Below are positions 29,462-64,000 of a stretch of DNA of 64,000 nt, one piece after another. The translations under genes were made by a program, and so were the position numbers. Under the pieces are notes generated by a model that saw nothing but the letters and a program-made list of their open reading frames with translations, was not told the DNA's origin and made no database searches. This DNA is from an uncultured bacterium (lineage in GTDB: Bacteria; Oederibacteriota; Oederibacteriia; Oederibacteriales; Oederibacteriaceae): positions 1,952,001-2,016,000 of the forward strand of contig OZ218778.1 of NCBI GenBank assembly GCA_965112635.1, read 5' to 3'. Position 1 is the first letter of the stretch. Every line of letters begins with the position of its first letter.

Positions 29462-29597
29462 CCATTTAGAAGGAAAAGTGGTAATATGAAACCCCCCAGA
29501 ATAGAATTAGCCTGTTTTTTTATCCCTAGTCTGAGGAGGCCGTTAGCCGGTTTTCGTTACCCTAAATGAGTTTGATTTTTTTCCGAAAGGGTTCTTT

Positions 29598-30602: not shown

Positions 30603-30617
30603 AAAACAATCAATCCA

Positions 30618-32588
30618 ATGAAACCTCTGAATATAAGCCATGTCCATGTCTTCCTCAGACAGGATGAGGTTACGCCAGTTTCGCTAGGAGAGTTTTACTC
30701 CCTTTACTGCAGCCGTAACCAGAACAAGAAAGTCTTGTTCATCAAGGAACACCCACAACTATCAGTCCTAACTTGTAAGGGAGGGCAGCATAGGGTTTTG
30801 TCCCAGATGCCCGCCTCTTTCCCTGAATGGAACCTGCAGTTGTTAAAGGGGTATTTCGAAAAGCACGAGGATAATTTAGACCTAGCAGTGGTTTTCCAGG
30901 ACAAGGCCAGCCAATCTCAGTTCTTGTGTGACATTGCCAGAATTTTGAAATTCCTCCAAGAGGCCTATCAGGTTATTGTTTTGGAAACGGTCTTGACCCA
31001 GGATAAATGGCAGAAAGAACTGTTATGCTGTGCGGATAAAGTCACCCCGGTGCTTACCCGCAAGGATGGTGGCAGTGATGACCACAAGTTATGGCCAAGG
31101 TCAGCAAAAAGCATTGTCCTGGGAAACGACGAGATCGTGGATGGAAAGAATCAATTGGTTCTCCCTAAAGGAGTTGATCAGACCTTGGTCCGTTTTGCGC
31201 ACCAGGAGATTACGAACGACCCCTTGTTGCAACATATTGTTGGTTTTTTGACAGTGGAAGAACAAAATCTTATTTCCGGAACTGGTGCGGCCAAACCGGA
31301 GGTTAGTTTCCCCCGTCTTACTGAGATGAAAAATCAGGTACACACTGAGTTGCTACAAAGGATGAAAGTGCGGCATTTGGATTGGGAATTAGTCCAATCT
31401 CCGAGCCGAGCCCAGGAGTTTAGAGATCAACTTATTAAGGTGATCGACGAGATCCTGGCGGAAGAAAAAAGTCAGGCGCTGGCTGGTGAGAAAGAGAACC
31501 TTAAAAAAGAATTGATCGACGATGTCTTAGGGCTTGGACCTTTGGAAGATATGCTGGCGGACGATGAAATTACAGAAATCATGGTCAATAGTAAGGATCA
31601 GATTTATGTGGAGAAAGAGGGCGCTCTTTATTTGACCCCCAAGAGGTTCCTGTCGGACGATCAGCTTCGGGCTGTCATTGAGAAGATCGTGACTCCCCTG
31701 GGCCGCCGCATAGACGAAAGCACTCCTACGGTAGATGCCAGGCTTAAGGACGGTTCGCGGGTCAACGCCGTTATTCCGCCGCTGGCTTTGAAGGGTCCCT
31801 GTTTAACCATCCGGAAATTCTCCAAAAACAAATTGACCGATAAGGATTTGATCAGGTTTGGGTCTTTGTCCCAGGCAGCGGCTGATTTTCTCAGGCTTTG
31901 CGTGTTTAACCGCAGGAACATTGTGATCTCAGGCGGGACGGGTTCCGGGAAAACCACCCTGCTCAATGTTTTGTCAGGGTTTATTCCAGAAAATGAGAGG
32001 ATTGTGACCATTGAGGACTCTGCTGAATTGAGGTTGTCACAAGAGCATGTGGTGTCTTTGGAAACCAGGCCTCCCAATATCGAGGGGAAGGGAATGGTCA
32101 CTATCAGAGATCTGGTCCGAAATTCTTTGCGTATGAGACCAGACAGGATAGTGGTGGGAGAATGCCGTGGAGGCGAAACCCTGGATATGCTTCAGGCCAT
32201 GAACACTGGCCATGACGGATCTCTTACAACGGCTCATGCCAACTCGCCGCGGGATTGCTTGTCCAGGTTGGAGACTATGGTTTTGATGGCTGGCATGGAC
32301 CTGCCAATCCGGGCCATCCGGGAACAGGTTGTAGGTGCAGTCCACTTCATTGTCCAGCAGTCCAGAATGGCAGATGGCAGCAGGAAGATCACTCACATCA
32401 CCGAGATAAGCGGTTTGGAGGGTGACAAGATCACTCTGCAGGATATTTTTATTTTTAACCAGAAAGGTTTTGATAGCTCAGGAAAAGTAGTGGGAGTACT
32501 CAAGCCCACCGGATTGATACCTAAATTTGTTGAGGAGCTTGGGAAAAAAGGTATTACTGTGGAAAGGAATATCTTTCAGGAAGGTTGA
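30618..32588 (+). CDS. cpaF: TadA/CpaF pilus ATPase with ~230-aa N-terminal extension
   Basis: GLGPLE.., ISGGTGSGKTT, TIEDSAEL, LRMRPDRIVVGECRG, MNTGHDGS. Confidence 0.9.
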   Translation: MKPLNISHVHVFLRQDEVTPVSLGEFYSLYCSRNQNKKVLFIKEHPQLSVLTCKGGQHRVLSQMPASFPEWNLQLLKGYFEKHEDNLDLAVVFQDKASQSQFLCDIARILKFLQEAYQVIVLETVLTQDKWQKELLCCADKVTPVLTRKDGGSDDHKLWPRSAKSIVLGNDEIVDGKNQLVLPKGVDQTLVRFAHQEITNDPLLQHIVGFLTVEEQNLISGTGAAKPEVSFPRLTEMKNQVHTELLQRMKVRHLDWELVQSPSRAQEFRDQLIKVIDEILAEEKSQALAGEKENLKKELIDDVLGLGPLEDMLADDEITEIMVNSKDQIYVEKEGALYLTPKRFLSDDQLRAVIEKIVTPLGRRIDESTPTVDARLKDGSRVNAVIPPLALKGPCLTIRKFSKNKLTDKDLIRFGSLSQAAADFLRLCVFNRRNIVISGGTGSGKTTLLNVLSGFIPENERIVTIEDSAELRLSQEHVVSLETRPPNIEGKGMVTIRDLVRNSLRMRPDRIVVGECRGGETLDMLQAMNTGHDGSLTTAHANSPRDCLSRLETMVLMAGMDLPIRAIREQVVGAVHFIVQQSRMADGSRKITHITEISGLEGDKITLQDIFIFNQKGFDSSGKVVGVLKPTGLIPKFVEELGKKGITVERNIFQEG

Positions 32589-39190: not shown

Positions 39191-39265
39191 TCCCCGGTAG
39201 CTCAATGGCGGAGCATCCGGCTGTTAACCGGAGGGTTGCTGGTTCGAGCCCAGCCCGGGGAGCCA
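39191..39265 (+). tRNA. tRNA-Asn (GTT)
   Basis: Acceptor stem TCCCCGG/CCGGGGA, anticodon arm TCCGG-CTGTTAA-CCGGA, GGTTCGAG T-loop, encoded CCA. Confidence 0.97.
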
Positions 39266-49624: not shown

Positions 49625-49818
49625 TTTCTATTCACCTCTTTTCTTTAGTTAATTTTGAATATCAAGATGTAGACCCTAATAGGTTCAACATTCTACTATA
49701 AATAACAATCTAAGGGTGAGAAAAATTTCATTAGGAAAGGGAGTATTTATAGCGCATTTTTAAGGGAAAAGTGAGATAATTATTTTAATTAGAGTTTGTA
49801 ATTGTTTTGGGAGGGGCA

Positions 49819-50481
49819 TTGAAGCGATCAGGCGTATTCCTGCTGTTATTGGTATCAATATTTTTAATGGCTAGCTGCGCTCACCGGGTCTTGGTCAGTC
49901 CTGTAGTGGATTTCAGCCAATATCAACGCATGGCTGTGCTGCCTTTTGACAGCAATACGACCTTTTCCAATGCCGGGAGCGAATTGGCGGACGGAATCGT
50001 GGTCCAGCTCATTCAGAATGCTCCGGCCGTGACCGTCGTGGAAAGGGCCAAGATCGACCAGGTCTTGCAGGAACAAAATTTGGCCGCCAGCGGTATTTTG
50101 GACCCATCAACGACGGTCAAGTTGCACCAGCTTTTAGGTATCAACCTGCTTCTGACCGGTAACTTCAAGGTCGCCATCGGCGATACCGTAGCGCCTTTGA
50201 GCTATTCCAACGGCGCCAGCGGTTCGCTGACGCCCCAGGACATCTATACGACCCGGCTGGTCAAAGGCACGGCGGTGGCGAGACTGATCGACGTGACCAC
50301 GGGCAAAGTGATATGGGCTAAACAGTTCGAAGCCGACACGTCCACCTATGCCATTTCTTCGAGCGGGCAACTGGTTGCCAGCGGCACCCGGACGGACGGG
50401 GAACTGGTGGATGACGTGGCCAACACTATAGCGCTTCATATAGCACAATGCTTTTGGGAACACGAAGAATATCAGTGGTAA
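49819..50481 (+). CDS. CsgG/HfaB-like lipoprotein
   Basis: Lipobox LMASC; AVLPF, VVER..IDQVLQEQ, ARLIDVTTGKVIW; TTG start after GGAGG. Confidence 0.8.
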   Translation: MKRSGVFLLLLVSIFLMASCAHRVLVSPVVDFSQYQRMAVLPFDSNTTFSNAGSELADGIVVQLIQNAPAVTVVERAKIDQVLQEQNLAASGILDPSTTVKLHQLLGINLLLTGNFKVAIGDTVAPLSYSNGASGSLTPQDIYTTRLVKGTAVARLIDVTTGKVIWAKQFEADTSTYAISSSGQLVASGTRTDGELVDDVANTIALHIAQCFWEHEEYQW

Positions 50482-50495
50482 AGGAGGTAAGGGAC

Positions 50496-50933
50496 ATGAA
50501 AAAGATATTATTCATCGCATTCCTGGTTGTTTTGGGAGCGACTTTTTACGCTGAAGCCCTTGAAATTTACCACTGGAACGAAGTCGACCAAGGTTTTGTA
50601 AGGGCTAAAGCGGAGAACAAAATGGTCGCTATCGACTTTTATTCCCCCAATGAAGGCTGGCAGAAGAAAATGGATGACCCTGCACGCAATGAGGTCAGGC
50701 AGCTTTTACAGGACCATTTTATTTTCATGAAAATCAATGTTTATGGTGAAAATATCGTGAGCTTCAAAGGACGCAAAGTCCTGGAAAGAGACCTGGCCCA
50801 GGAATTCATGGTGTCGGTCTATCCCACCCTTGTTTTTATGGACGCTGACGCCCATCCGCTTACCTATCTGCAGGGCTATGTCGCGCCTCCGGACATGCTG
50901 GCAGTGTTAAAGTACCTGCTTAAGATAAAATAA
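50496..50933 (+). CDS. Secreted thioredoxin-fold (SoxW-like) protein lacking CxxC
   Basis: AKAENK...IDFYSPNEGWQKKMD, YPTLVF, GY; GGAGG RBS. Confidence 0.75.
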   Translation: MKKILFIAFLVVLGATFYAEALEIYHWNEVDQGFVRAKAENKMVAIDFYSPNEGWQKKMDDPARNEVRQLLQDHFIFMKINVYGENIVSFKGRKVLERDLAQEFMVSVYPTLVFMDADAHPLTYLQGYVAPPDMLAVLKYLLKIK

Positions 50934-50983
50934 GTTTTCCCGCTAGAAAGCGCGCTATCCGTTCTGAAAAAGCAGATATTTGA

Positions 50984-51011
50984 GGAACTTTCTTTGCCTT
51001 TTATTGTCTAA
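50984..51011 (+). promoter_or_regulatory. ECF (sigmaE/AlgU-type) promoter
   Basis: GGAACTT-N15-GTCTAA, same spacing as the site at 24442. Confidence 0.65.
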
Positions 51012-51097
51012 TATTAGGGTAATGGTATATAAAAACCTTAAAAACATGCTATTTGCTGGGTCCTTTTGGGGATTTTGCAGAAGTAATGGAATAAGAG

Positions 51098-53349
51098 TTG
51101 ATTCGTGGCTATACTAAAAAAATAGGCTTTAATTTTAAAGAAAGGTTGGTACTCAGAGTGGGGGTAAACCGTTTGAAATTCACGGTATCCTTCATATTTT
51201 TATTCCTATTGATCTTTTTCGCTGTTCCTCTGCTTCAGGCGGATACAGTCGTAGTCAACAACTTATTAGCTTTACAAGCCGCCGTTTCTGCTTGCAGCGT
51301 AATAAGGCCTCCTGGCGGCAGGGTGATCATCATTCAGCCAGGGACCTATTCCCAAACCGACGAGGTCAACGTTACCATGACGCCAGGCACAGCAGACACG
51401 ATCGACCGTCTTACGATCACCGGTTCCACTGGCAATTACAATGACACGGTCCTGCAGGGTATGGGGATCGATAACACAAATCAAAATTTCAACTTCTGGG
51501 TCCACGATGCCCCCAATGTGACGATCATGAACATGACCCTTAAGAACACCTACTATTCCGCGATCCAGATCGAATTGAACTCCCAAAATTTTGAGGCGCT
51601 CAATGTGAAAATGCTCGATAACGGCGAGTGCGGTTTCAAGATAGCCAGTTCAACAGGGATCCTTGACCCTGTCACTCAGCCCAACTATCCTGATTTTGGG
51701 CTGGTGGAGAACTGCTGGATCGGTTTTTCGTCGACCGGACATCGCACTGTTGTAGAAGGTTTTGACAATGTCGCGGCGCAGGGGTGGGTGGTGGCCCATA
51801 ACACTTTTGTCAATGTTCAAGGGCCCCCGGGCCAGGGTGTCGTGGGTTATGGCTGTTTTGACAAGGGAGGTTCTATCAATTGCACGATTGACAGCAACTT
51901 ATTTCTGGATTGTGACATTGGGGCTTCTTTCGGGGGGGCAGCACGGGTACGCAATTTTTCCGCAACGGGACCTATCCTGTGGAGAACATAGGCGGCATCA
52001 TCAAGAACAATATCATCTGGGACCCTAACGATACCAATGCTGACACGGGGATTTATATCAACTGCGCCCAGAATTCCAAGGTTGAAAATAATACCGTGTG
52101 GAACCAGGCCGCTTGTTACACTGCCTCTCTCACCCCTTACGCCAATTCCATCGAGTTTCGCTTTGTCACCTGCACCGGATGCGTGTGCTACAACAATATA
52201 TGCCAAGGGGCTATCGTGAAGCGGGATGGTGCTGTGTGGGCGGCCCAAACCAATAACCAGCAGCAGTACATGAATTTTCCTCCCTTTCCCTTTGTCAACG
52301 CTGGGGGAGGCGATTTCCGTCTTCTCGCAGGCTCCTCGCCAGTGGATGCCGGTTTGTCCCTGCCTGCGGATGTTCCTGTCGACATAACAGGTACCGCAAG
52401 GCCCCAGGGGTGCTGCTGGGATATCGGTGCCTGGGAATTGATCCAGGGCACTTCAACTTTCACGCGGACTTCCACGCCCACCTATACAGGGACCGCCACC
52501 GCTACGCCGACCCGGACCGCGACCATAAGCCAGACGGCCACCCAGACGTTGACCCCGGCGGCAAGCTTTACCTGGACCGCCACGGCGACCCTGACGCTGA
52601 CCTCGTCGCAGACCCTTACCCCCAGCCAGACTTTTACCATTACCACCACCTCCACCCAAACCGTGACGCCGTCGCAGACCCTGACGCCCAGCCAGACCTT
52701 GACGCCCAGTCAGACTTTGACCTCCAGCCAGACCTTCACCATTACCAGCACCTCCACCCAGACCGGCACCTCGACCCTGACCCTGACCTCCAGCCAGACT
52801 CCGACCTCGAGCCAGACACCCACTGTCACGACCACCGCGACCCAAACCCAAACCCCCAGCCAGACGGCAACAGCTTCTCAAACAGCCACCATTACGCAGA
52901 CATTCACGGTCACCACCACGTTTACCGCGACCCTCACGGGGAGCCAGACCTTTACCGGTACCCAAACCGCCACCGCAACGCAGACTGTTACCCCTTCAAT
53001 GACCTTTACGCCTTCCCTGACTTTTACCAACACGCCGACTTTTATTACCACCCCGCCTACCTTGGGCAACAGCTTTATATATCCTTCGCCAGTCAACGGA
53101 AACAATGCCACGATCGTGTATTTCATGTCAGGGCCCGGGACCGTCAAGATACGAGTGTATAACGAGGCGGCACAGCTGGTGGCGACCTTAGAGGAGAATA
53201 AGCAGGGGGGCCCACAAGCGAGCCTTTTGGATGTGAGTAATTATGTGTCCGGAGTCTATCTCTATTTGATCAACATGAGGTACAACTCATCGGTGACCTA
53301 TACGGGTAACAACAAGGTGGGGCCAAAAAAATTCATAGTGCTGAAATAG
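51098..53349 (+). pseudogene. Secreted beta-helix protein with Thr-rich linker and CTD, frameshifted at a G7 tract (51932-51938)
   Basis: ORFs 51098-51991 and 51979-53349 join as SFGGGSTGTQFFRNGTYPVENIGG if one G is added. Contains DFRLLAGS..DIGAWE and KKFIVLK. True start probably slightly downstream. Confidence 0.75.
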
Positions 53350-53543
53350 TTTCCAGTCTTCCCGCCTGACTTTCCCGCATTTCCCCCTTTTTGTTTTACT
53401 TAAATTTAACTTAACCAGCTCGCTACAGATGGAGGTGAGTGCTATATCCAAAAAAATGAGGATTTGTGAAGGAATAGGCATTATAATTCTGGAAGAGTAA
53501 AGTCCTGTTGTAGCAGGGCCTTGTTGAATAAAGGAGGATTTAA

Positions 53544-54536
53544 ATGAACAAAGCAAAAGTTTTGATGTGTCCAGAAAAGGGCAAGGTAGAACTGCAGGAT
53601 ATCGAGATCCCTCAGCCGGACAAGGAAGAGATACAGGTCAGGGTCCACGCTTCCCTGATCAGTCCGGGGACAGAAAGGGCGTTCGCGCTGGGTCTGGCCA
53701 ACGCGGTGACGGATTTTCCCTGGCCTCCGGGGTATTGCACGGCTGGAGTGGTGGAGGCCGTGGGAACGGACATCAAACGCTTTAAAGTCGGGGACAGAGT
53801 GGTCGCCGCTATGATCGGGCACCGTTCCCTGGGTAACGCCTGGGAACCCCAGGTGATCCCTGTCGCCGAGGGCGTTCCCTTTGACAAGGCGGTGTTCATG
53901 CCTTTGGGGGTCGTGGCCCTGCAGGGTGTCCGCAAGGCCAGGATAGAGGTCGGCGAGGGAGTTTTGGTGCAGGGCCTGGGCATCATCGGCCAGCTGGCTT
54001 TGCAATACAGCCAACTCAACGGCGGCTTGCCGGTCGTGGGCCTGGACAGAGTGGAGAACAGACTTCAGATCGCCTCAAAGTGCGGGGCGGACGCGGTCTT
54101 TAACGGCGCGGACAAAAAGTGGAAGGACAAGCTGATGGAAATGACCGGAGGAGAGGGGCCACAGGTGCTCATCGAATCCACGGGCGTGCCCGAGGCAGTG
54201 GCGGACGCTTTCCAGACCGTCCGCAAGTTCGGCCGGGTGGTGATGCTGGGAAGCACCAGGGGCGACAGCACCATCAACTTTTACCGGGACGTGCACAAAA
54301 AGGCCCTGACCATTTATGGGGCGCATATTTCCGCCAATGCTTCCAGCGAATCCAGGCCGGGATATTGGACCTGGCTGGACGATGCCGCCTGCTTCATGCG
54401 GACCTTAAAGGCGGGCAAGCTGAAAATCGACCCCCTGACCACGGAAAAGATCTCGTGGAAAAAAGCGGAGGAGACCTACCGTAGCATGCTCAAGGGCAAC
54501 ACCGACATGGTGGGCACGGTCATTAACTGGGAATGA
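53544..54536 (+). CDS. Zinc-binding (MDR) alcohol dehydrogenase family protein
   Basis: SLISPGTE, PGY..AGVV, GLGIIG Rossmann motif. Confidence 0.88.
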   Translation: MNKAKVLMCPEKGKVELQDIEIPQPDKEEIQVRVHASLISPGTERAFALGLANAVTDFPWPPGYCTAGVVEAVGTDIKRFKVGDRVVAAMIGHRSLGNAWEPQVIPVAEGVPFDKAVFMPLGVVALQGVRKARIEVGEGVLVQGLGIIGQLALQYSQLNGGLPVVGLDRVENRLQIASKCGADAVFNGADKKWKDKLMEMTGGEGPQVLIESTGVPEAVADAFQTVRKFGRVVMLGSTRGDSTINFYRDVHKKALTIYGAHISANASSESRPGYWTWLDDAACFMRTLKAGKLKIDPLTTEKISWKKAEETYRSMLKGNTDMVGTVINWE

Positions 54537-56545
54537 AAAAGGAGAGAGAATTGAGCGTCATCTATCAGGAAGATTTCAGGGGTTGGGCTCCGGGCTTTTT
54601 GCCCCTCAACCCAAATTACAAAGCCCTGGGCGAATACCACTGCTTTGAATATCCAGACCTCAAAGGGTGGATGTGCCCGACCAACCACTGGAGCTGGGGC
54701 AACTGGGGAGCGCGTTTTTGGAAGGTCGTCAAGAACAAGAACAAAGCCTGCCTGACCCAGACCATCGACAGCCTGTACGACAACATGATCCTCATCAAAT
54801 ACGATGTGGATGCGCGGCATTGCGCCTATGAGGCCGTGGTCACTCCTGCCTCCCGGAAGATCGTGGAGATCGGCCTGGTGTTCAGGTACCGGGACAGTTT
54901 CACCTATTACGCGTTCATCCTTGATTACCATTTGGCCAAGCTGGTCAAAAGAGAAGAGAACCGCTGGGTGGTCCTGGGAGCAACGGCTTTTGAGGCGAAA
55001 AAGAATAAAAGTTACCGTTTGAAAATAGCGGACAGCGGGCCGGCCATCACCTGTTCCATCAATGGAAAACCGCTCATCTATGTCAAAGACCAGCCTGACC
55101 TTTTCAGCGGCAAGACCGGACTTATCGCTAATTTCCCGGCCAGTTTTACGGGCGTGAGCCTGGCCCAAGGGGCCAAGGCCGGCCAATCTGTTAAAAGCTG
55201 GGACATCATGCGGAACAAGTTCAAAAAAGAATATCCCCAACCGGTGCTGTGGCGGGAATTCAGCACCAAAGGGTATGGGACAGGCAAAAATTTCAGGTTC
55301 GGCGACCTGGACAACGACGGCCAGATGGAGATCGTCATCCCCCAGGTCCAATATATTTCCAACAGCAAAACAACCACCACGGCCGTGGGGTGCGTCACGG
55401 CCATTGATTTGAGAGGCAATGTCCTGTGGCAGCACGGCAAGCCTTCCAACTCCTCGGAGATCATTGCCAGCGACGTGCCCTGCCAGGTCTATGACATTGA
55501 CGGCGACGGCTGGCCTGAGGTTTTGTGCGCCATGGATTTTGAGCTGCTCATCATGGACGGCAGGACCGGCAGGATAAAACAGAGGATGCCCACCCCCAGG
55601 CCCATACCCCGCACCAAGACGGAAAAAGAACTGCTCTACGATTACGGAAGCCCCAGCGGGGAGGAGTTCCCCAGGATCGTGCCTCTGGGGCTGCTGGTCT
55701 GCAATGTTTCCGGCAAAAAGCGGGCCTCCGACATCCTGCTCAAGGACTACTACCACAACATCTGGATCTACGACAACAAGCTCAGGTTCCTCTGGCACCA
55801 CCTGTGCAACATCGGGCATACCCCGGCTTTTTACCCCTTGGGCAAGGACCGCAAGGACTGGGTGGTCGCCGGGTTTTCCATCCTGGACCCCACGGGCAAA
55901 TGCGTGCAGAGCTTTGACATGGCCGAGCATTGCGACGCGGTCACGGTGGGGAAGTTCAACGACTTTTCCGGCGAGCCCACCATCGCCATGGTCGCCGGAG
56001 GCGGCGGGTTTTCCCTGTTCGACCGCAAAGGCAATTTCAAGACCAACATGATGGGGCACGCCCAGCACCTCAACATCGCCAACTACAGGCCGGAACTGCC
56101 GGGCCTGGAGTACTGTGTCGTGACCTTCCATGACAACCCCGGGGTCATCTATATGTGGGACACCACGGGCAAACTTCTATGGAAAAAAGAGATGCTCATC
56201 GCCGGATGCACGGGCGAGCCGGTCAACTGGGACGGGTCGGGCGAGGAGCTTATTTTCTACTCCGGCCATCCGGAATACGGCGGCTTGCTCAACGGCTTTG
56301 GCGACAGGGTGGTGAGCTTCCCCAGGGACGGGCATCCTTACCTGTGCGGGGTCAACCTGGACCTGACCGCAGACAAGAGGGACGAGATCCTTTTGTGGGA
56401 CCTGGACAGGGTGAGCATCTACACCCAGGACAGGCCTTTTCAGGGGAAATCCATTTACGAGCCTGTCCGCAAGCCCGGCCTGCATAACTTTTCCAACTAC
56501 AACGCCATCGTGTCCATGCCGCGCTTCGTCAAGCCAAGAGCATAA
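54533..56545 (+). CDS. Beta-sandwich + FG-GAP/rhamnogalacturonan-lyase(PL11)-like propeller protein
   Basis: GDLDNDGQME, YDIDGDG.PEV, GHAQH...ANYRPELPGLE, DLTADKRDE, SNY. Confidence 0.65.
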   Translation: MKKERELSVIYQEDFRGWAPGFLPLNPNYKALGEYHCFEYPDLKGWMCPTNHWSWGNWGARFWKVVKNKNKACLTQTIDSLYDNMILIKYDVDARHCAYEAVVTPASRKIVEIGLVFRYRDSFTYYAFILDYHLAKLVKREENRWVVLGATAFEAKKNKSYRLKIADSGPAITCSINGKPLIYVKDQPDLFSGKTGLIANFPASFTGVSLAQGAKAGQSVKSWDIMRNKFKKEYPQPVLWREFSTKGYGTGKNFRFGDLDNDGQMEIVIPQVQYISNSKTTTTAVGCVTAIDLRGNVLWQHGKPSNSSEIIASDVPCQVYDIDGDGWPEVLCAMDFELLIMDGRTGRIKQRMPTPRPIPRTKTEKELLYDYGSPSGEEFPRIVPLGLLVCNVSGKKRASDILLKDYYHNIWIYDNKLRFLWHHLCNIGHTPAFYPLGKDRKDWVVAGFSILDPTGKCVQSFDMAEHCDAVTVGKFNDFSGEPTIAMVAGGGGFSLFDRKGNFKTNMMGHAQHLNIANYRPELPGLEYCVVTFHDNPGVIYMWDTTGKLLWKKEMLIAGCTGEPVNWDGSGEELIFYSGHPEYGGLLNGFGDRVVSFPRDGHPYLCGVNLDLTADKRDEILLWDLDRVSIYTQDRPFQGKSIYEPVRKPGLHNFSNYNAIVSMPRFVKPRA

Positions 56546-56609
56546 TTCCCGGAGCGATGACACAGCCCTAAACGGGTATTCCTGTGTCTAGCCTGGTGCT
56601 GTGCTCAGG

Positions 56610-56704
56610 GAACCCCCTTTTTTCCTTCTATATATATCAATCTGGATAATGGGTCGCAGGGCTCCATCAAGATCGGGCCCAAGAAGTTCATCGTGCTCCA
56701 TTAA
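56610..56704 (+). pseudogene. Orphan 3' remnant of a CTD-bearing gene
   Basis: Translates ...IYINLDNGSQGSIKIGPKKFIVLH*, compared with ...YLINMRYNSS..NKVGPKKFIVLK* at 53349; left boundary approximate. Confidence 0.6.
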
Positions 56705-56888
56705 CCCCGTCCTCAAAAGCTGGCGATTTCCAGATAAGACAATCCCCCCGGAATACCCCCACAATGCCCTCAATGCTGGGTTAAGTCCCTGCCGGACTGC
56801 TCTGGCTGGTCTGGTTGGTTTAACCGCAACAATCCCGCCTTCAGCGAGGCCTCTTTAAAATACCTCTGGATTCCGGCTAACCGCCAAC

Positions 56889-57212
56889 TGTCCGTAAAAC
56901 TGTCCGTAAAAAGTGTCCGCAAAGAATGTCCGCAAAGAACTGTCCGTAAAAACCTGCTATAAAACAATACTGTTATTAAATAACAATATTCAAGTGTCCG
57001 TAAAAACTGTCCATAAAACTGTCCGCAAAAGTGTCCGCAAAGAATGTCCGTAAAAAGTGTCCGCAAAGAATGTCCGCAAAGAACTGTCCGTAAAAACCTG
57101 CTATAAAACAATACTGTTATTAAATAACAATATTCAAGTGTCCGTAAAAACTGTCCATAAAACTGTCCGCAAAAGTGTCCGCAAAGAATGTCCGTAAAAA
57201 GTGTCCGCAAAA
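56889..57212 (+). repeat. Iteron-like array: 19 TGTCC(G/A)YAAA units at 12-14 bp spacing in a 144-bp higher-order tandem repeat
   Basis: Blocks of 5, 8 and 6 units separated by an identical AT-rich segment containing TGTTATT-A-AATAACA; period starts 56901, 57045, 57189. Confidence 0.92.
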
Positions 57213-57221
57213 GGCCAGGGT

Positions 57222-57239
57222 GTTGGTATAATGACCAAC
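57222..57239 (+). promoter_or_regulatory. Extended -10 promoter inside an inverted-repeat operator
   Basis: GTTGGT-ATAATG-ACCAAC contains TG-G-TATAAT; the -10 ends 9 nt before ATG 57242. Confidence 0.6.
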
Positions 57240-57241
57240 CT

Positions 57242-58219
57242 ATGCTGGACGCTTTAAAATCTCTCAGGACCCCAAAAAAGGACACTCAGGGTATCTTTGG
57301 CCTGCTGGCCTGGATATTCGGCGGGGTCTTCTTTTGCCATGTGATTTACCGCCTGTTTATCACCCCTGTGGACGGCTATCTGACCACCCACCAAAAATGG
57401 GTCCATGTCAGCCTGGGAAGCAACCCCTACTTCCTGACCGACCTGGGCCAATCCTGCGTTCCCTTTGTTATCTACATCATCTTCCTGTATCTCTACCTGT
57501 TCCTGCAGGAAGCCCGCTGCTGGGTGCTTTACCGGGCTCTCCAGGACGACCCGGCCCTGAGTATAGGTCAGATGACCTCTTTTCGCGGTCTAAAAGCCTG
57601 GTTCTACCTGTGGCTCGTCTGCCACTGGATGGCCATCCTAGGGGTCTACCGCATCTATACCACGGACGATAACCGGGTCTTTTTTCTCGATCTGACGGTG
57701 TGGTTCTGTTTGTGGGCATTCCTGGTCCAGTGGGCCAGCCAGAGCATCCTCAACCATCTGAGGGAAGTCAGGGACAGCGTGGCCCCCCAGTCTCTCCAAA
57801 AGGTCAGGGAGTCTTTTGGCAGCCTTTTCAAGGATGTCTGGTTCAGCGTGTGGGCTGACTCCATGCTCAAGCCGGAGCCGAAATTCAGGGAGCCTGATCC
57901 AGCGGTATCGCCGCTAGGCGGGCAGACCAGGGTCATCGATGTGGAGGCCGGGCCTGTCCAGGAAAAACCCCAGCCTGAGCCAGCGCCTGATAAGCCGGTG
58001 CAGGAAACCAGGACAGGGCCGGTCAAACAGCAGATATTGGACTGGGCCATCAAAAAGGTTGATTGGTTCAGCCCCAGGGAGCTGGAGGAGGATTTAAAGA
58101 TAAAATCCAAGACACGGCAACGCTATACCAACGAGCTCGTGGGCGAGAACCGTCTGGAAAAGGACGGCTCCGGCCCGCGCAACACAAAGTTCCGGGCGAA
58201 AAGAGGTTCTTTGAAATGA
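57242..58219 (+). CDS. Membrane protein (about 4 TM) with Pro-rich linker and C-terminal winged-helix-like domain
   Basis: Hydrophobic segments, then QQILDW....WFSPRELEEDLKIKSKTRQRYTNELVGENRLEKDGSGPRNTKF. Confidence 0.7.
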   Translation: MLDALKSLRTPKKDTQGIFGLLAWIFGGVFFCHVIYRLFITPVDGYLTTHQKWVHVSLGSNPYFLTDLGQSCVPFVIYIIFLYLYLFLQEARCWVLYRALQDDPALSIGQMTSFRGLKAWFYLWLVCHWMAILGVYRIYTTDDNRVFFLDLTVWFCLWAFLVQWASQSILNHLREVRDSVAPQSLQKVRESFGSLFKDVWFSVWADSMLKPEPKFREPDPAVSPLGGQTRVIDVEAGPVQEKPQPEPAPDKPVQETRTGPVKQQILDWAIKKVDWFSPRELEEDLKIKSKTRQRYTNELVGENRLEKDGSGPRNTKFRAKRGSLK

Positions 58220-59634
58220 AACGAGCAGGGCTCCTCTGTTTCTGCCTTGTCCTTGGTCTGGCTGTCCTGGCCAAGTCCCAGGACACCGACACCCTGACCC
58301 TGGGGAAGGGCGAAAGCAAAACTTACACGGTGGGCGACCCTTCCGGCTGTTTCGTCGACAACACCAGCATCCTGTCCCTGCAGACCATTGGAGACAACCA
58401 GATCAAGGTCACGGCCCTGCAACCAGGCCAATGCACCCTGACCCTGCCGGGCAAAGGAGGAAGGAACAGGTACATCGAGGTAGCGGTGTCAGAAACAGTT
58501 CCAAGTTCAAAGTTAAATGTTCCAAGTTCTGACTTGAAACTTGGAACTCGAAACTCGGAACTTGCTCCTAATCCTGACTTGAAACTAGGAACTTCAAATT
58601 CTAATAGGAATCGTGGTTCTAACAGGAGCAATAACGGCGTCAGGGCCAGGGTAAAAGTCGCCGGCGTCAGTCTGTCCACCAACCTGGGACTGGCCAACAG
58701 TGCCCCCACGCCTGAGCCCACGCCGGACCGGACCATGATCCAATACAATGTCAAACTGGTGCAGGTGAGCGAAAGCAACGCCCGCCAGCTGGGCATAGAC
58801 TGGGCCAACACCCTGCAGGGCCCCAATGCCGGCGGTGACACGCCTTTGCATGTGAGCGAACAGGCCAACCCTCCCTTGCTCAACTGGGGCTCGTTCCAGC
58901 GGGGCAGTACGGATGTGAAGCTGGACGCCCTGGTGACCCAGGGCTTTGCCAAGGTTTTGGCCGAACCCATGGTGCTGGTGGAAAACAACTCGACCTCGGA
59001 CAACGGCAACGGAGGACAGCTTCCCCTGGTCAGCGCGGCCCCCTTGTCCAGCAACTCCATCAACCTGAAACAGTACGGCACGACCCTGACCATCGGGAGC
59101 CAGCTTGTCGGGGACGGCAAAGTGGAGACCAAATACAATATCGAGCAGTCCCTGCCTGACAGCACCTACAGCGTGAGCCAGTCCAACGGGGCATCCGCTC
59201 CGGCCCTGCGCAACGGATACGCCCGGGGCCAGGTGTGCTCCAAGCTGGGCGATACCGTGTTCCTGGACAGCCTGGTGCAGGTCCAGCAGATGAAAACCAC
59301 CAGCAAAGTGCCGGTCCTGGGAGACCTGTGGCTCATCGGCGGGATATTCACCAATACCAGCACCCAGGATACCCGCGACTATATCCTCATCTTTATGACC
59401 CCGGACCTGTACGCTACCAGGGCCAAAGCCGGGCAGGAAAAATACTTCCCGGAGCAGGAGGGGAATAAAAGCCTTGACCCAGCCAGGAATGACTGGGACA
59501 GGGAACCCGGCCAGCCCGCGGTTCTGGGCGAAGGACAGCGCAGGATTTTTGGCGTCCTAAATTTGATGCTCGGCATCCCCGATTACTCGCTCCTTTTCCC
59601 CGATCCCGGCAACGCCAACAAAGATGAACAATAA
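58216..59634 (+). CDS. Second Tad-like secretin (paralog of 28451-29461)
   Basis: ATGA overlap with the upstream gene; signal peptide; EQANPPLLNWGSFQRG..LDALVTQGFAKVLAEP, KVPVLGDL, ILIFMTP. Confidence 0.85.
   Translation: MKRAGLLCFCLVLGLAVLAKSQDTDTLTLGKGESKTYTVGDPSGCFVDNTSILSLQTIGDNQIKVTALQPGQCTLTLPGKGGRNRYIEVAVSETVPSSKLNVPSSDLKLGTRNSELAPNPDLKLGTSNSNRNRGSNRSNNGVRARVKVAGVSLSTNLGLANSAPTPEPTPDRTMIQYNVKLVQVSESNARQLGIDWANTLQGPNAGGDTPLHVSEQANPPLLNWGSFQRGSTDVKLDALVTQGFAKVLAEPMVLVENNSTSDNGNGGQLPLVSAAPLSSNSINLKQYGTTLTIGSQLVGDGKVETKYNIEQSLPDSTYSVSQSNGASAPALRNGYARGQVCSKLGDTVFLDSLVQVQQMKTTSKVPVLGDLWLIGGIFTNTSTQDTRDYILIFMTPDLYATRAKAGQEKYFPEQEGNKSLDPARNDWDREPGQPAVLGEGQRRIFGVLNLMLGIPDYSLLFPDPGNANKDEQ
58498..58594. 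repeat. Inverted tandem heptamer array inside the secretin CDS
   Basis: GTTCCAA GTTCAAA GTTAAAT GTTCCAA GTTCTGA C TTGAAAC TTGGAAC TCGAAAC TCGGAAC, plus a downstream partial copy. Confidence 0.8.
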
Positions 59635-59800
59635 TGCGTCAAACTCTCTTGTAATAATGCGTTTCCGCTCAAGAGAGTTTGTGCAGAACTAGCTGTTCTA
59701 CATCTCCACACTGGCGTTGGCGGATCGCAACAGCCTTGCGAGCCTGACAATCGTCCCGCTCTCCTTCGGTGTTTCGTCAATCGCCGTAACGCCGAAAGAG
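59635..59800. other. Non-coding cluster of four hairpins
   Basis: CAAACTCTCTTG/CAAGAGAGTTTG, AGAAC/GTTCT, TCGCAA/TTGCGA, TTCGGTGTT/AACGCCGAA. Confidence 0.55.
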
Positions 59801-59891
59801 AAATAGATTGCCAAAAAGCGGGAAAGGTTTGACATAGGGGGACAGGGGGAGGAAAATCAGGATAATGATGGAATTAATTAAAAAAAAGAGG

Positions 59892-61261
59892 GGGTCATCT
59901 CCCAAGTGAGTGGGTAAATTCTGGTCATTTTAGTTAAACTCAGGGAGCATACAGGTCAGGACTTTTAACCTGAGATACTCTTCGTCCCTTAACCCATATG
60001 TCCTTCTCTGAATCACACGAATCTTGTTGTTCAACCCTTCCACAAAACCCAGTGAGACTTTGTTATCGGGATTGAAGTAGGCCACAATACCCTCCCAATG
60101 GCGCTCGACCAGTCGGGCAAAATCCTCGAATGGTTTGAGACGCTGCCACTTCAGCGAGGCCGTCCAGTTGTCGAAAAACTTTCTAGCTGAAGCTTCGTAG
60201 CTGTAGTCCCAAAGCTGTGTAAAGGACTCTTTGAGCATGTAGGCAGTATTGAGTCGCTTGTTGGCGGCCAGCAAGGCCTTGAGAGCCCTCTTTCCATCCA
60301 GCGAAAGGTTCTCGTGATTGGAAAGCAGGTTGTACTTCTGGCCTTTGATGAAACGCCGCCCTCTACCTGAGACTCTGGCATACTCGCTCTTGCGTATCTT
60401 GTCCAAGGCCTCATTGAGCTGGCGTTGGACATGAAAATGGTCGTAGAGAATGGCGGCGTTGGTGTGCGTCCATGTAGCACTCTCAAAGGCTGGCCACATG
60501 TCCATCACCGCAAGTCGGATTTTTGCGCACCTGCTTGGTCCAATCTCCTCAAAAAAGAGTTCCATACTCTCCTCGGAACGGTCTATCCCGCCAAACCAGA
60601 TAGGCCTCTTTTTCTCCAGGTCACTGACCACGATCCGATAGGTATGCCCCTTACGGATAGAGATTTCGTCAATACCGATGACCTCGGGCTTGGGCTTTCC
60701 GGCTCTGCGGAGTTTTTCCTGCATATACTGCTTCTCAAGCTCTTTGACGGTCTTCCAATCCAGCCTTAACTCTTTGGCTACGGCCTGGATCGTCGAAGTA
60801 CTGCAACGATTGCCCACATAGTAGCCAAAGCGCTTGGTGTAGAAGGGATTATCCGCTAGAAAGGCGAACTTCTCTTGCTTCACCATGCCACAACTCTTGC
60901 ACAAGACCCGCCGGACTTCCAACTCCAGGAAGACCCGATAATCACCGCAGGAGAGGTCTCGCACCCTCCTGATCCTTCGGTCATAAAAACTGCGGTGCTC
61001 CAGGCCGCAGGTCGGGCAGACTGTTTTTTTTGAAGTCTCTTCAGCCGGATGATACGGGCTTTGGGGTCTCCAAAAACTCCAAATACTTCTGTCTCCGGCG
61101 TGAAACCCTTAAACCGGTATGCGTCTGTAAGCCGTCTGTGTTTTTTCATCCACCTAGAAAACACCAAAAGCTACAGCCTTGCAAGTCCTAAAACCCTTGC
61201 TACACTTACCTTAATTCATCTTTCTGGCTAACTTTTTACCCACTCGGGAAGGAGAAGAGCC
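59892..61261 (-). mobile_element. ISL3-family insertion sequence, complete (1370 bp)
   Basis: Imperfect 27-bp IRs GGGTCATCTCCCAAGTGAGTGGGTAAA / GGCTCTTCTCCTTCCCGAGTGGGTAAA; 8-bp target duplication AAAAGAGG at 59884-59891 and 61262-61269. Confidence 0.95.
59930..61167 (-). CDS. ISL3 transposase encoded by two ORFs joined by a -1 frameshift at an A8 run (61024-61031)
   Basis: IGIDEIS, MDMW, YDHFHV and VEGLNNKI motifs; the -1 frame gives the zinc finger KTVCPTCG..VRDLSCG..CKSCG. Confidence 0.88.
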
Positions 61262-61280
61262 AAAAGAGGTAGGGGGCACT

Positions 61281-62978
61281 ATGGAATGCAATAAGTGTGG
61301 TAAACAGATATCAGGAATTAGTTATTTCTTTAGTGCTCCTGGGGAATTATGGGAAAAATGTAGGAAGTGCGGCAAGGGCTTTTGTAAACATTGTATAAGC
61401 GTAGATAGTGAAGGTAAATATTTCTGTAATGAATGTAAAGGGATAGTCAAAATGAATGGAACTATTGAAAAAGCTAATAAGAAAATAAATCTAGCACCAC
61501 TAGGATTATTGATTCTGTTCCTAGTCATTCCGGTTGTTGCATTTATTGCCTCTTATGCAATTCAAGGGCAGCTAGATACAAATTTTCGGACCGCATTACT
61601 CAAGGATTATCCGGAGCGATCTACTGAAATATCTACATTAACGGCATCTTCTGCTTGTAGTAATCAGAAGTTTAGGGCTGCTGCGGGAGATTTTTGTGAA
61701 TTAAATGACATAATAAATTTGATGAGGCTATGCGCCATTTTTACTGCTGTTTTAGGTATCGGGCTTCTTATTATCATTAAAATTGCTGGGTTGATTACAC
61801 GTGGCAGCCGAAGATTTCTATTACTTATTTTTAAACCAGGATTACACATAACCATGTTAGCGCTGAGTTTGCTAATGATATTGAATGCTTCTTTAGGTAT
61901 TTTCGCAATATATTATGGTGAATCTGTTTTCTTAGGAAGGGTTCATGTATTTGTTATAGTTGGTTTAGGACTTGGGGCGCTGTTTGGTGTTATATCAATG
62001 TTTAAGGCGCAATTAAGTACAACCAAAAGAGCTTCGGTATTTGTTCTTGGAAAAAAACTAGAACCAGAACATCAACCGAAAATATGGGAATTTGTTAACG
62101 AACAATCAAGGCAAATGGGTGCAGAACGACCGCAGGCAATAGTTGCTGGATTAGAACCAAATTTTTATGTTACCGAAGCGGATGTTATCTGTTTGGATGG
62201 CACAATAAAAGGTAGAACAATGTATGTCTCTATGCCTCTTTGCCGTATTCTCAATGTCGAAGAAATAAAAGCAGTCCTTGATCATGAGTTAGCCCACTAC
62301 AAAGGACTTGATACTAAGTTTAGTAAAAAGTTTTATCCAATATATCGTGGGGCAACACAAGGACTTGTCAATATATCTTCAGGTTATTCAGACCATGGGG
62401 CAGCAGGTCAAATAGTATTAATGCCAGCAATGCTAACCCTGGCTTATTTTCTAAATTCTTTTTCTGTCGCAGAAAATAAAATTAGCAGAGAAAGAGAACT
62501 GGCCGCTGATAGTGAAGCGGCAAAGCATGAAGGATCTCAAAGAATAGCTACGGCTCTTGTTAAAATTCAGACATTTTCAACTATCTGGAATGTTGTGCAA
62601 CAATTAATGTGTAAATCAATTGGAGAAGGTAAAATGATAATAAATGCCAGTGAATTTTATTCAACAATAGTTCAGGACAGAGATAAAGAAAACCCTTCTA
62701 TCAATGTTTTAGAAGAAGGACCAGCCCACCCAACAGATAGTCACCCTCCACTTAATCAACGTTTTGAAAATTTAAATTTAACGTTAAATGATGTTATGAA
62801 AGATGTTGAAAATACAGCGCCGCGTAAACCCGCCATAGGTTTATTTGATAATGTTGAGACGCTAGAAAAAGAACTAACAGAAGCCGAACATATGTGGATG
62901 GTACGAACTGGTAGAGCGCAAGCCCCAGTAGAAAATCCAAATAAAGAGGAAACGGAAAATAAAATCCCCGCAAAATAA
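61281..62978 (+). CDS. M48 (HtpX/Ste24-like) membrane zinc metalloprotease with N-terminal Cys-rich zinc finger
   Basis: HELAH, RERELAAD and SHPP motifs; N-terminal CxxC clusters; AT-rich. Confidence 0.85.
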   Translation: MECNKCGKQISGISYFFSAPGELWEKCRKCGKGFCKHCISVDSEGKYFCNECKGIVKMNGTIEKANKKINLAPLGLLILFLVIPVVAFIASYAIQGQLDTNFRTALLKDYPERSTEISTLTASSACSNQKFRAAAGDFCELNDIINLMRLCAIFTAVLGIGLLIIIKIAGLITRGSRRFLLLIFKPGLHITMLALSLLMILNASLGIFAIYYGESVFLGRVHVFVIVGLGLGALFGVISMFKAQLSTTKRASVFVLGKKLEPEHQPKIWEFVNEQSRQMGAERPQAIVAGLEPNFYVTEADVICLDGTIKGRTMYVSMPLCRILNVEEIKAVLDHELAHYKGLDTKFSKKFYPIYRGATQGLVNISSGYSDHGAAGQIVLMPAMLTLAYFLNSFSVAENKISRERELAADSEAAKHEGSQRIATALVKIQTFSTIWNVVQQLMCKSIGEGKMIINASEFYSTIVQDRDKENPSINVLEEGPAHPTDSHPPLNQRFENLNLTLNDVMKDVENTAPRKPAIGLFDNVETLEKELTEAEHMWMVRTGRAQAPVENPNKEETENKIPAK

Positions 62979-63025
62979 ATAAGTATTTTATTAATGGAAC
63001 AGAATAGTGAATGGGATAATCAAAT

Positions 63026-63934
63026 ATGATAAAAACAGATAAATACGCCCAATTGATTGAACAACTTGAGCGAGCTAGTGCATTATTAGCAGATGCTCAA
63101 AGACAACTATACGACTATAATGAAGTTATTAAAGAATACATAAATCAAAAATCTTATTCATGGAAAGATCAAATCCTTTTTGAGTATGTAGCAACAACCA
63201 TGCAGGGCAAAAAACCTGTTTGGGTGGAATTAACTGAAAAAGTCAAAACCCCAATAAATCTATTTTTGGAATTATATGAAATAATTATGAGGCATTATTA
63301 TTACAATGAACTTTTGCAGTTTTCCGAAAAAAAATCTAAATTGCTAATGCTATTTCAGAATCTTTCAAAGGCATATACTGAACTTAATTTAGATCATATA
63401 AAAGTACTAAACGACCAGTTAGGATTGTTTGGGGGTGAAATAAAAACCCGTTTAGATTGGCTAGAGGCGAATAATAGGACAGACCCTTCAAATATTTTAC
63501 CTACAGTTTTTATTTCTAAGGGGTTTTCCGAAGAGGAAAATAAATTAAATGAATTTTTTGAAGGTTATATTGAGGCTTTAAAAATAGTGTGCATTTCGGG
63601 AGAGCCCTATGATTCCTCATCAATACCTGAAAAAATCCGAAAGAGAATAGATTCTTCAGATGCTCTTATAGCAATTATACAAAAACGATATTCTTCTCAA
63701 TCTGGAACATCTGGAGCTGGTTCTGCTTGGGTAATAAGAGAAATAGAATACTCATTAGGGAAAATAAAACCAGTTATAATATTAGCTGAAAAAGGTGTTG
63801 AGACTGCCGGATTTGAGTTTGAAAAAGAAATAATATATTTTGATTTGAAGGATCAACCATTAACAACATCGTCTATAAAGAAATTGCTCCAAGCTTTAAC
63901 AAAATATGGGCTTACTGGAAAGACTACAGAGTAA
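63026..63934 (+). CDS. Helical N-terminal domain + TIR-like nucleotide-binding domain protein
   Basis: VFISKGF, I.K.IDSSD.LIAII, SAWVIREIEY...K.KPVIIL; AT-rich. Confidence 0.7.
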   Translation: MIKTDKYAQLIEQLERASALLADAQRQLYDYNEVIKEYINQKSYSWKDQILFEYVATTMQGKKPVWVELTEKVKTPINLFLELYEIIMRHYYYNELLQFSEKKSKLLMLFQNLSKAYTELNLDHIKVLNDQLGLFGGEIKTRLDWLEANNRTDPSNILPTVFISKGFSEEENKLNEFFEGYIEALKIVCISGEPYDSSSIPEKIRKRIDSSDALIAIIQKRYSSQSGTSGAGSAWVIREIEYSLGKIKPVIILAEKGVETAGFEFEKEIIYFDLKDQPLTTSSIKKLLQALTKYGLTGKTTE

Positions 63935-64000
63935 ATTGGTTCAATCTAGCCCCCCATCCTCATTTCCACAATTTATCCGCCTGAAATCTTTCAAGAGATG

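Follow-up and report, generated by a model that had tools for sequence, protein, structure and literature searches.

The DNA analysed here, referred to throughout as the window, is a stretch of 64,000 nucleotides (positions 1952001-2016000) from the single-contig genome (2.88 Mb, 51% GC) of an uncultured bacterium. Near its right-hand end lies a two-gene cassette, which consists of a direct-repeat array, a promoter, a gene for a protein of 325 amino acids (aa) with four transmembrane segments and a predicted C-terminal winged helix (gene A), and a gene for a 472-aa secretin of the CpaC/RcpA type (gene B). A preliminary description of this locus had proposed that these parts form an undescribed module connecting DNA with an envelope channel. 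Here, we describe the cassette and its copies in the same genome, each sequence-distinct copy standing behind repeats of its own, and we discuss whether gene A may encode a membrane-integrated regulator of its own operon. The nearest genomes available for comparison share kinship with the source at phylum level only (n = 40 relatives).

The cassette: repeat array, gene A and secretin

The repeat array forms the core of a non-coding stretch that runs from the stop of an FG-GAP/RGL11-like gene at 56545 to the ATG of gene A at 57242. The decamer TGTCCGYAAA occurs 17 times without mismatch between 56889 and 57211, always on the forward strand; 0.17 copies are expected from shuffled sequences, and none of 100 shuffles reached 17. 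Two further copies with one mismatch each (TGTCCATAAA, at 57008 and 57152) bring the total to 19 sites, so the array reported earlier is real. The copies follow one another with a period of 12-14 bp in three clusters of 5, 8 and 6. Cluster A (56889..56950, forward strand) is a run of five direct copies and is followed by an AT-rich spacer (56951..56994), which holds a palindrome (AATACTGTTATT/AATAACAATATT, 56966-56990, with 12-nt arms that are 92% complementary) and a second extended -10-like site, TGCTATAAA. Cluster B1 (56995..57094, forward strand; seven exact copies and the TGTCCATAAA copy at 57008) leads into a second AT-rich spacer (57095..57138, with its palindrome at 57110-57134), and this in turn into cluster B2 (57139..57211, forward strand; five exact copies and the variant at 57152). 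The two spacers are 44 bp long, identical, and each carry the palindrome. A 144-bp tandem unit is present 2.2 times in the array at 98-99% identity, and the middle cluster and one of the spacers derive from its tandem duplication; the extra unit is missing from a second genomic copy of the array (L003, see below) and from one contig of a peat metagenome.

The last repeat lies over the -35 position and ends 15 nt upstream of TGGTATAAT (57224-57232, forward strand), the extended -10 element of a promoter that has no recognisable -35 element. Because the ATG of gene A follows only 9 nt past this -10, the mRNA should be essentially leaderless, in keeping with the nearly leaderless start noted previously. 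The operator-like palindrome that had also been pointed out over the -10 (GTTGGT-ATAATG-ACCAAC, 57222..57239) is present, but its 6+6+6 arrangement is missing from the 83%-identical paralogue L002, and it may therefore be a product of chance.

Gene A (57242..58219, forward strand) encodes a four-transmembrane domain, a juxtamembrane segment, a proline-rich linker and a C-terminal domain. Four Kyte-Doolittle peaks, at about residues 17-40, 68-90, 117-138 and 146-166, agree with the four membrane spans first proposed. Counts of lysine and arginine (four in the N-terminal tail, one in loop 1, three to five in loop 2, one in loop 3) fit the positive-inside rule and so predict that both termini, and with them the C-terminal domain, face the cytoplasm, as the preliminary description had assumed; the periplasmic loops would be about 30 and 7 residues long. 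The fourth segment is followed by an amphipathic-looking stretch (residues 171-215), by the proline-rich linker of about 45 residues (216-259), and by a terminal domain of 66 residues (260-325, nucleotides 58019-58216). Gene A found no family match in Pfam (E<0.01), NCBIfam, PHROGs or PADLOC, and we regard it as a new, lineage-restricted protein family.

Structure prediction supports the assignment of the terminal domain as a winged helix, or winged helix-turn-helix (wHTH), which had been proposed from its sequence. Modelled on its own with AlphaFold2, together with two paralogues, the domain reaches a pLDDT of 85.9 and folds in the order H1-b-H2-H3-b-b. The top Foldseek matches in the PDB are winged helices without exception (MarR, Zalpha, ST1889, DsrD and ArsR; TMq 0.77-0.85, root-mean-square deviation 1.2-3.0 Å). 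The weak Pfam matches of the domain are likewise all to wHTH families, with MarR_2 at 0.0017 at best, in one paralogue and under the cut-off. A profile of the gene A family also matches proteins made of tandem wHTH repeats of the HTH_24, HTH_11 and MarR kinds (P0005, 7.8e-8; P0007, 6.1e-5; P0008, 1.1e-4). A sequence search of the PDB with the family profile gave nothing significant (best match AdcR, of the MarR family, E 0.81), and VIA-align with the full-length model returned generic helical bundles only, at Z<=9.4, which is under the meaningful level for helical proteins.

Gene B (58216..59634, forward strand) overlaps the end of gene A by an ATGA at 58216-58219, which bears out the earlier view of a translationally coupled two-gene cassette. 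Its product has a signal-peptide-like N-terminus, a T2SS-T3SS_pil_N domain (PF13629) at residues 25-90 (E 1.6e-5; 25 bits, cut-off 23), a low-complexity linker at 95-170, a Secretin domain (PF00263) at 238-398 (E 1e-20; 74.4 bits, cut-off 27.5) and a C-terminal tail of 55-60 aa. The best match anywhere is the Tad secretin (CpaC) encoded at 28451-29461 of the window, with 36% identity (E 7e-49), so that the paralogy suggested before holds. Other matches outside the source genome lie at 23-31% identity; the exception is P0011, a 417-aa strain variant of gene B, which is identical at 415 of 416 residues and then ends at residue 417. PADLOC assigns gene B to no defence family.

The Tad CpaC of the source genome has orthologues in 39 of the 40 phylum relatives, at 41-57% identity among the matches listed. 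In a quick maximum-likelihood tree of 31 rows, from which rows with internal stops or short matches had been left out beforehand and in which the two cassette secretins deviate in composition, the secretins of the window and of L002 group together with an SH-aLRT of 100; this clade has a branch length of 2.74 substitutions per site and is placed inside an unresolved polytomy of phylum CpaC sequences. As the cassette secretins branch within this group, gene B appears to have arisen from the Tad secretin of its own lineage, to have evolved fast since, and to be no import, which favours the host over a mobile clade. It is a new, divergent member of a known secretin family. Gene B shares with RcpA/CpaC the pil_N and Secretin domains, the 36% identity and the position in the tree, and differs from them in its very long branch, in the inserted low-complexity linker with its heptamer hairpin, in a tail formed at an island junction, and in lying outside the tad operon: the tad genes (RcpC, CpaC and a T2SSE ATPase) occupy 27645-32588, about 25 kb away, and the neighbours of gene B are gene A and the island.

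The linker of the secretin contains an in-frame palindrome of 7-bp repeats (AGTTCAA / ACTTGAA; 58497..58564, detected with TRF), which includes a terminator-like 11-bp stem on the reverse strand; metagenome contigs with other surroundings are interrupted precisely at 58497, 58529, 58531 and 58564. Beyond the gene stands a hairpin cluster (59641..59800, forward strand) whose first stem is CAAACTCTCTTG/CAAGAGAGTTTG. Folding of 59630-59800 gives a minimum free energy of -56.9 kcal/mol (z -3.95), and none of 200 shuffles did as well, so this element of the preliminary description also stood up. The cluster holds short elements that recur past the L002 secretin and at other island borders; elsewhere in the genome there are repeats of 59712-59746, 59759-59804 and 59800-59860.

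Gene A paralogues and their private arrays

Gene A occurs in five copies in the source genome (the window, L002, L003, L004 and L005), three of them intact. L002 (genome 2136685-2137668) is 83% identical to the window gene and is joined by an ATGA-type coupling to a 348-aa secretin-like open reading frame (ORF). L003 (genome 1452108-1452518) is a 99-100% identical duplicate that begins at the equivalent of window position 56582 and is cut at codon 137 by an IS110-family element; the stretch shared with the window measures 930 bp at 99-100% identity, and its array has the one-unit form, with 10 exact repeats. The remaining two are distant relatives on the reverse strand. In L004 (genome 492213-493070, 28% identical) the winged helix is interrupted by an IS3-type element, itself containing an IS256-type transposase, and L005 (genome 2814442-2815416, 27% identical) is intact.

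All four sequence-distinct copies share one upstream layout, in which repeats, an AT-rich spacer and further repeats are followed by TGRTATAAT and, 7-9 nt on, by the ATG; the TG(G/A)TATAAT element is invariant in the four promoters. The repeat itself differs from copy to copy, being TGTCCGYAAA in the window, CTGGCGGATAAA at L002, GTGACACTAGT at L004 and ATTGGCGYRAGA at L005. The L002 array comprises four CTGG(C/Y)(C/G)G-A-rich direct repeats with a period of 12-13 bp, preceded by inverted copies. At L004 there are two clusters, each of one inverted and two tandem GTGACACTAGT copies, with an AT-rich spacer between them, and at L005 two pairs of ATTGGCGYRAGA stand around such a spacer. These motifs are private. 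Of the 40 occurrences of TGTCCGYAAA in the genome, 27 lie inside the arrays of the window and L003; all four of ATTGGCGYRAGA are at L005, and five of the six of TGACACTAGT are at L004. Only 2 of 10 TGGCGGATAAA copies are found at L002, yet they are the only adjacent pair. Nowhere in the genome does any of the motifs cluster except at its own copy of gene A. The idea that the wHTH protein binds the array before its own gene, already put forward in the preliminary description, thus gains comparative support from four of four distinct paralogues with private repeats before a conserved promoter.

Comparison of the window and L002 genes adds to this picture. Over the whole gene, the ratio of nonsynonymous to synonymous substitution (dN/dS) is 0.23, which marks gene A as a real, constrained gene. 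Divergence is greatest in the winged helix, where identity falls to 65% (dN 0.21) and both the recognition helix and the wing have changed. The transmembrane region keeps 87% identity, and residues 171-215 are unchanged (100% identical) despite a dS of 0.56. Since the repeat differs with each paralogue and the winged helix changes fastest, we infer that each winged helix reads its own repeats. The two cassettes match without interruption at 86-87% nucleotide identity over 57209-58488, a block that starts at the promoter and takes in the secretin N-domain to its end; it has the look of a duplication or gene conversion more recent than the older, diverged 3' parts. The secretins are 87% identical in the N-domain and 34% in the core, with a dN/dS of 0.25 over the first 92 residues. 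A secretin follows two of the three intact gene A copies, and one of these two secretins is degenerate.

Beyond the source genome, relatives of gene A are hardly to be found. The family was detected in none of the 40 phylum relatives, and a word-indexed search of 5.8 billion clusters returned gene A itself only. A profile search of 1.84 billion representatives gave seven matches at E<=1e-3, namely three paralogues from the same genome, three proteins matching in the wHTH only, and one fragment of 115 aa. This fragment (P0006), from a 658-bp contig, aligns to the transmembrane region (hhalign 96.8%, 24% identity). Pattern searches for gene A yielded 41 candidate stretches in genome contigs and 129 in metagenome contigs, with no confirmed gene A locus in either set. 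An array-pattern scan of metagenome contigs gave at least 121 stretches; the family hidden Markov model, run on the translations of 84 of 120 such loci, reached E 0.028 at best and recovered no relative. One dense match to the array pattern (L125) was rejected, as it proved to be an unrelated tandem repeat with no match to the source genome. Scores in the ESM Atlas were 0.77-0.78 only, below the usable range. Contig sets from four peat or sediment metagenomes do cover the cassette stretch, solely as short pieces of low depth. The preliminary description had named, as grounds to reject it, a failure to find the gene pairing and the array together in another genome. The combination recurs at L002 within the same genome but was found in no other genome searched, which formally speaks against the proposed module.

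Neighbouring DNA and the downstream island

Upstream of the array, the window segment 56582..56880 (forward strand) belongs to the duplicated unit; the L003 copy begins with the same sequence (genome 1451592-1451900, 100% identity). It contains two TAACCGC(C)AAC boxes and, at about 56600-56750, decayed 3' ends of genes with C-terminal sorting domains of the type IX secretion system (T9SS) kind, the alignment of which ends in ...KKFIVLH and a stop. Matches to 56621-56727 at 83-85% identity are present in 4-5 other genomic places; this stretch was considered as a miniature inverted-repeat transposable element and ruled out, because it corresponds to the conserved 3' end of the coding sequence in T9SS-type cargo genes. 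The gene upstream of L004 carries Por_Secre_tail and is an intact cargo gene of this type, and because L004 still has it directly upstream, a T9SS-type cargo gene was probably the ancestral neighbour of the cassette. An Rfam scan of 52000-64000 gave nothing relevant. There is no tRNA gene near the cassette, the sole one in the window being tRNA-Asn at 39191.

Downstream, the sequence changes in character. The cassette has a GC content of 0.53-0.61, similar to that of the host genes upstream of it, whereas from 61200 on the value is 0.32-0.38. The downstream genes include a degenerate ISL3 transposase, an M48 peptidase, a TIR protein, AbiV, an XRE-AAA pair and an IS110 element. The last 190 bp or so of the secretin gene, from about residue 412, together with some 35 bp beyond it (59451..59639, forward strand), are repeated about 7.9 kb downstream at genome 2019531-2019719 with 86% identity, and a third, shorter copy lies 0.9 kb past the second (genome 2020418-2020513). 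The strain variant P0011 departs from the window secretin where this repeat begins, near residue 412-416. The simplest reading of these repeats is that a low-GC defence island inserted itself into gene B at its 3' end, duplicating the attachment site, and that the C-terminal tail of gene B was created at the island junction. Other gene A copies also border insertion sequence (IS) or restriction-modification regions.

Several further observations concern this region. The repeats span more widely than the secretin end, over window 59451-59860 and genome 2019531-2019762 and 2020418-2020558 (L010 8461-8900 and 9380-9620). A promoter-like element at 59800-59860 (TTGACA-17-GAAAAT) has further copies with 85-90% identity at genome positions 1451470, 2496134, 861172 and 2020525, one of which stands about 60 bp before the L003 cassette copy. 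One sequencing run contained a joint that goes back from 59840 to 56582; a circular junction was rejected as its explanation, because the end-like element and the cassette start occur linearly at L003. The ISL3-family transposase (59930-61167, reverse strand) appears split into a 344-aa ORF with a GTG start and the DDE domain and an overlapping upstream ORF of 95 aa; at the DNA level, no second copy of this IS was found in the genome. The low-GC genes at 61281-63934 resemble a defence pair, but no PADLOC model matches them; their products are a Zn-ribbon/transmembrane/M48-peptidase protein of 565 aa and a DUF4062-TIR protein of 302 aa.

Two other arrays of direct repeats occur in the genome. 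At 2488290-2488445 (L162 about 2290-2445), an intergenic gap of 700 bp bordering another defence-like island holds 7-9 copies of the A-rich TTGTCATAAA, mixed with CCCCTTGTCAAATAAGG. No gene-A-like ORF adjoins it, and the array may have been orphaned or may serve another binder. At 2870150-2870350 (L163 about 3150-3350), near the contig end, about seven copies of CTAAACAAG with a period of roughly 25-27 bp in AT-rich intergenic DNA look iteron-like.

A candidate cis-acting membrane regulator and its alternatives

Regulators of the one-component type that are integrated in the membrane and bind DNA while membrane-bound are an established class (PMC6320335 and PMC7888679 for CadC; PMC7496328 for ToxR). 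We give an even chance, a probability of roughly 0.5, to the reading that gene A is such a regulator, acting in cis on the gene A-secretin operon. The four N-terminal helices would fix the protein in the inner membrane, its two ends facing the cytoplasm, and the flexible proline-rich linker of about 45 residues would carry the small MarR/Zalpha-like winged helix. Copies of this domain are envisaged to bind head-to-tail on the direct repeats, each a 7-bp core with an A-rich spacer, up to the -35 position. Given that the promoter has an extended -10 and no -35 element, and that the repeats extend as far as the -35 position, transcription of the operon would be set by how far the array is occupied. 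The sign could be either activation, as with response regulators, or repression, as at parC. Translated from its leaderless mRNA, the protein would be inserted co-translationally next to its own gene. Each paralogue would have evolved its own repeat and a matching winged helix, and would for this reason avoid cross-talk with the others. The likely input is the transmembrane domain together with the invariant juxtamembrane helix, which may sense the state of the membrane or envelope, perhaps through the burden that the co-translated secretin puts on it. This secretin would be regulated cargo, a rapidly diverging duplicate of the phylum's Tad secretin.

A number of points weigh against this reading. 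No repeat motif clusters before any other gene in the genome, and the lack of a regulon is unusual for a regulator. The co-variation of repeat and winged helix is seen among four copies that are related and belong to a single genome, and so do not count as independent lineages. The cargo is not constant, since L005 is intact and has no secretin (about 290 bp on there is a partial LolA_like ORF, and a small glycine-zipper protein is also encoded downstream), and since the secretin-like ORF of L002 is degenerate: it has lost large parts of the secretin domain, has no Pfam Secretin match, and shows a dN/dS of 0.85 against the window secretin in the core. The full-length AlphaFold2 model is poor (pLDDT 55.6), and the Foldseek E-values of the terminal domain are weak, 2.8e-3 at best, as expected of a domain of only 66 residues. 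Finally, 19 sites far exceed the need of a simple operator, an excess that is accounted for by the recent 144-bp duplication missing from the L003 copy.

The 19 sites are in turn a point for a structural role, in which gene A tethers its locus to the envelope or serves as an inner-membrane partner of the secretin, and autoregulation is a by-product. The locus would be held at the inner membrane so that the secretin is made and inserted there, or gene A would dock under the secretin for DNA handling or pore assembly. The ATGA coupling implies that the two proteins are produced together, and each array, private and strictly cis, lacks targets beyond its own locus. The two secretin-linked paralogues do not differ at all in periplasmic loop 1 or the juxtamembrane segment, and conservation of their secretins is far higher in the N-domain than in the core. 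FtsK, SpoIIIE and the TraB of Streptomyces consist of four transmembrane segments, a long linker, a motor and a gamma winged helix that reads the 8-mers KOPS, SRS or clt, and gene A reproduces the two ends of this plan, with its N-terminal four-helix anchor, its proline-rich linker and, at the C-terminus, a winged helix presumed to read short direct repeats in one orientation. However, it has no FtsK_SpoIIIE motor in Pfam or NCBIfam and only the 45-residue linker between membrane and wHTH, FtsK_gamma is not even among the weak Pfam matches of the terminal domain, and without a motor domain it cannot pump DNA. The cassette contains no motor, ATPase or platform gene, the periplasmic loops are short, L005 does without a secretin and the L002 core is decaying, while the high 5' identity, as one continuous block, is more simply explained by a younger duplication or gene conversion. 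We therefore regard a tether as doubtful. Its most specific form, in which the paralogues pin their loci to the inner membrane under a dedicated Tad-derived secretin in the manner of a motorless FtsK or TraB, to position pore synthesis or hand DNA to the channel, seems rather improbable.

Alternatively, the repeats could be bound by another factor, such as an OmpR/PhoB-type response regulator, or be mere promoter architecture, phased A-tracts serving as an UP-like or bending element, with the winged helix of gene A binding something else or a protein. A 7-bp core with an A-rich spacer over the -35 position of a -35-less promoter is the layout of response-regulator activators, CTGTCCGTAAAA resembles a pho-box half-site, and A-rich direct-repeat arrays do exist without gene A, as with the 7-9 copies of TTGTCATAAA described above. 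What makes this explanation unlikely is that the repeat sequence differs before each paralogue, which a shared host factor would not need, that the repeats of L004 (partly inverted) and L005 are not A-tract-like, and that no part of the protein changes faster than the wHTH. An origin as remnant or satellite of a mobile element, filamentous-phage-like as the preliminary description suggested or of another kind, would unite a pIV-like pore, a DNA-binding protein and an origin or packaging array. In its favour are the match of the secretin to PHROG 1012 (M13 pIV, 4.6e-15), the IS elements or defence islands adjoining all copies, the 930-bp duplication at L003, and the origin-like look of repeats with an AT-rich spacer. 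The PHROG match, though, is generic to secretins (the TIGR models PilQ, GspD and HofQ score equally well), the cassette secretins fall within the phylum CpaC group with their best match in the genome's own CpaC, and gene A matches no PHROG. The cassette has the GC content of its host, and the secretin 3'-end duplication flanks the low-GC island, so that the cassette is the target of integration and not its cargo. Among the ORFs scanned (49807 to 63934 and on to genome 2021886, about 7 kb upstream to 12 kb downstream, those under about 110 aa not systematically), there is no Zot/pI ATPase, Rep or other replication initiator, integrase or relaxase, as had been noted for Zot and relaxase before; the inovirus module of Zot/pI ATPase, replication initiator and small coat genes is thus not seen among them, though coat genes under about 110 aa may have escaped the scan. 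A phage-like origin is very improbable.

The cis-acting regulator has its nearest functional counterparts in two groups of proteins. The first, to which PMC6320335, PMC7888679, PMC7496328 and PMC5430869 relate, comprises ToxR, CadC and TcpP. These act at promoters through direct repeats near -35. As is predicted for gene A, they join a cytoplasmic winged helix to the membrane, with input and output in one polypeptide. Unlike them, gene A has the reversed domain order with its wHTH at the C-terminus, four transmembrane segments in place of a single one, no periplasmic sensor domain, and a winged helix of MarR/Zalpha-like and not OmpR type (no N-terminal Trans_reg_C, no sequence homology); it also differs from ToxR and CadC in its private array of up to 19 sites, with its own operon as the only visible target. 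A keyword search of the open-access literature brought up ToxR/CadC-type systems only and, in the text it covered, none with the architecture of gene A. The second group is represented by BcrR of Enterococcus faecalis, a membrane-bound bacitracin sensor and regulator with an N-terminal XRE-type HTH and C-terminal transmembrane helices, which binds inverted repeats. It combines a HTH and four transmembrane segments in one protein and regulates an adjacent operon from the membrane, as gene A would, but gene A has a C-terminal wHTH and long direct-repeat arrays, and no homology was detected.

The arrays themselves recall the centromere of type II plasmid partition systems. In parC/ParR, two blocks of direct repeats around the par promoter are autoregulatory and are bound by a soluble ribbon-helix-helix dimer. 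The gene A arrays likewise form two clusters of 10-13 bp direct repeats around an AT-rich, promoter-like spacer, immediately ahead of the gene for the putative binder, in cis and apparently self-directed. In contrast to ParR, gene A is a membrane-anchored wHTH protein, no ParM or ParA NTPase accompanies it, its operon consists of gene A and the secretin only, and the locus is chromosomal with host-like composition. The terminal domain also falls short of a full MarR protein (about 140 aa, with flanking dimerisation helices), since it has 66 aa and only the wHTH core superposes. Judged from its sequence, gene A thus lacks defining features of the ToxR/CadC, FtsK/SpoIIIE/TraB and parC/ParR classes, and the comparison points to a variant of the membrane-tethered regulators, nearest in function to ToxR/CadC/TcpP and BcrR, with a domain order reversed relative to these.

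Known membrane-tethered transcription factors are few and nearly all of the ToxR/CadC type, and it is a puzzle how a membrane protein reaches its chromosomal target. If the regulator described here is real, the gene A family would be a natural, minimal and strictly cis solution, in which the protein is made beside its own multi-site array. The four re-tuned paralogues would then represent orthogonal pairs of membrane-anchored protein and DNA site, and a system in which to follow the co-evolution of a winged helix with its sites. For the lineage, the cassette shows a Tad secretin that has been duplicated, put under such putative control, and then left to diverge or decay, the 3' end of its gene apparently serving as an integration site for a defence island.

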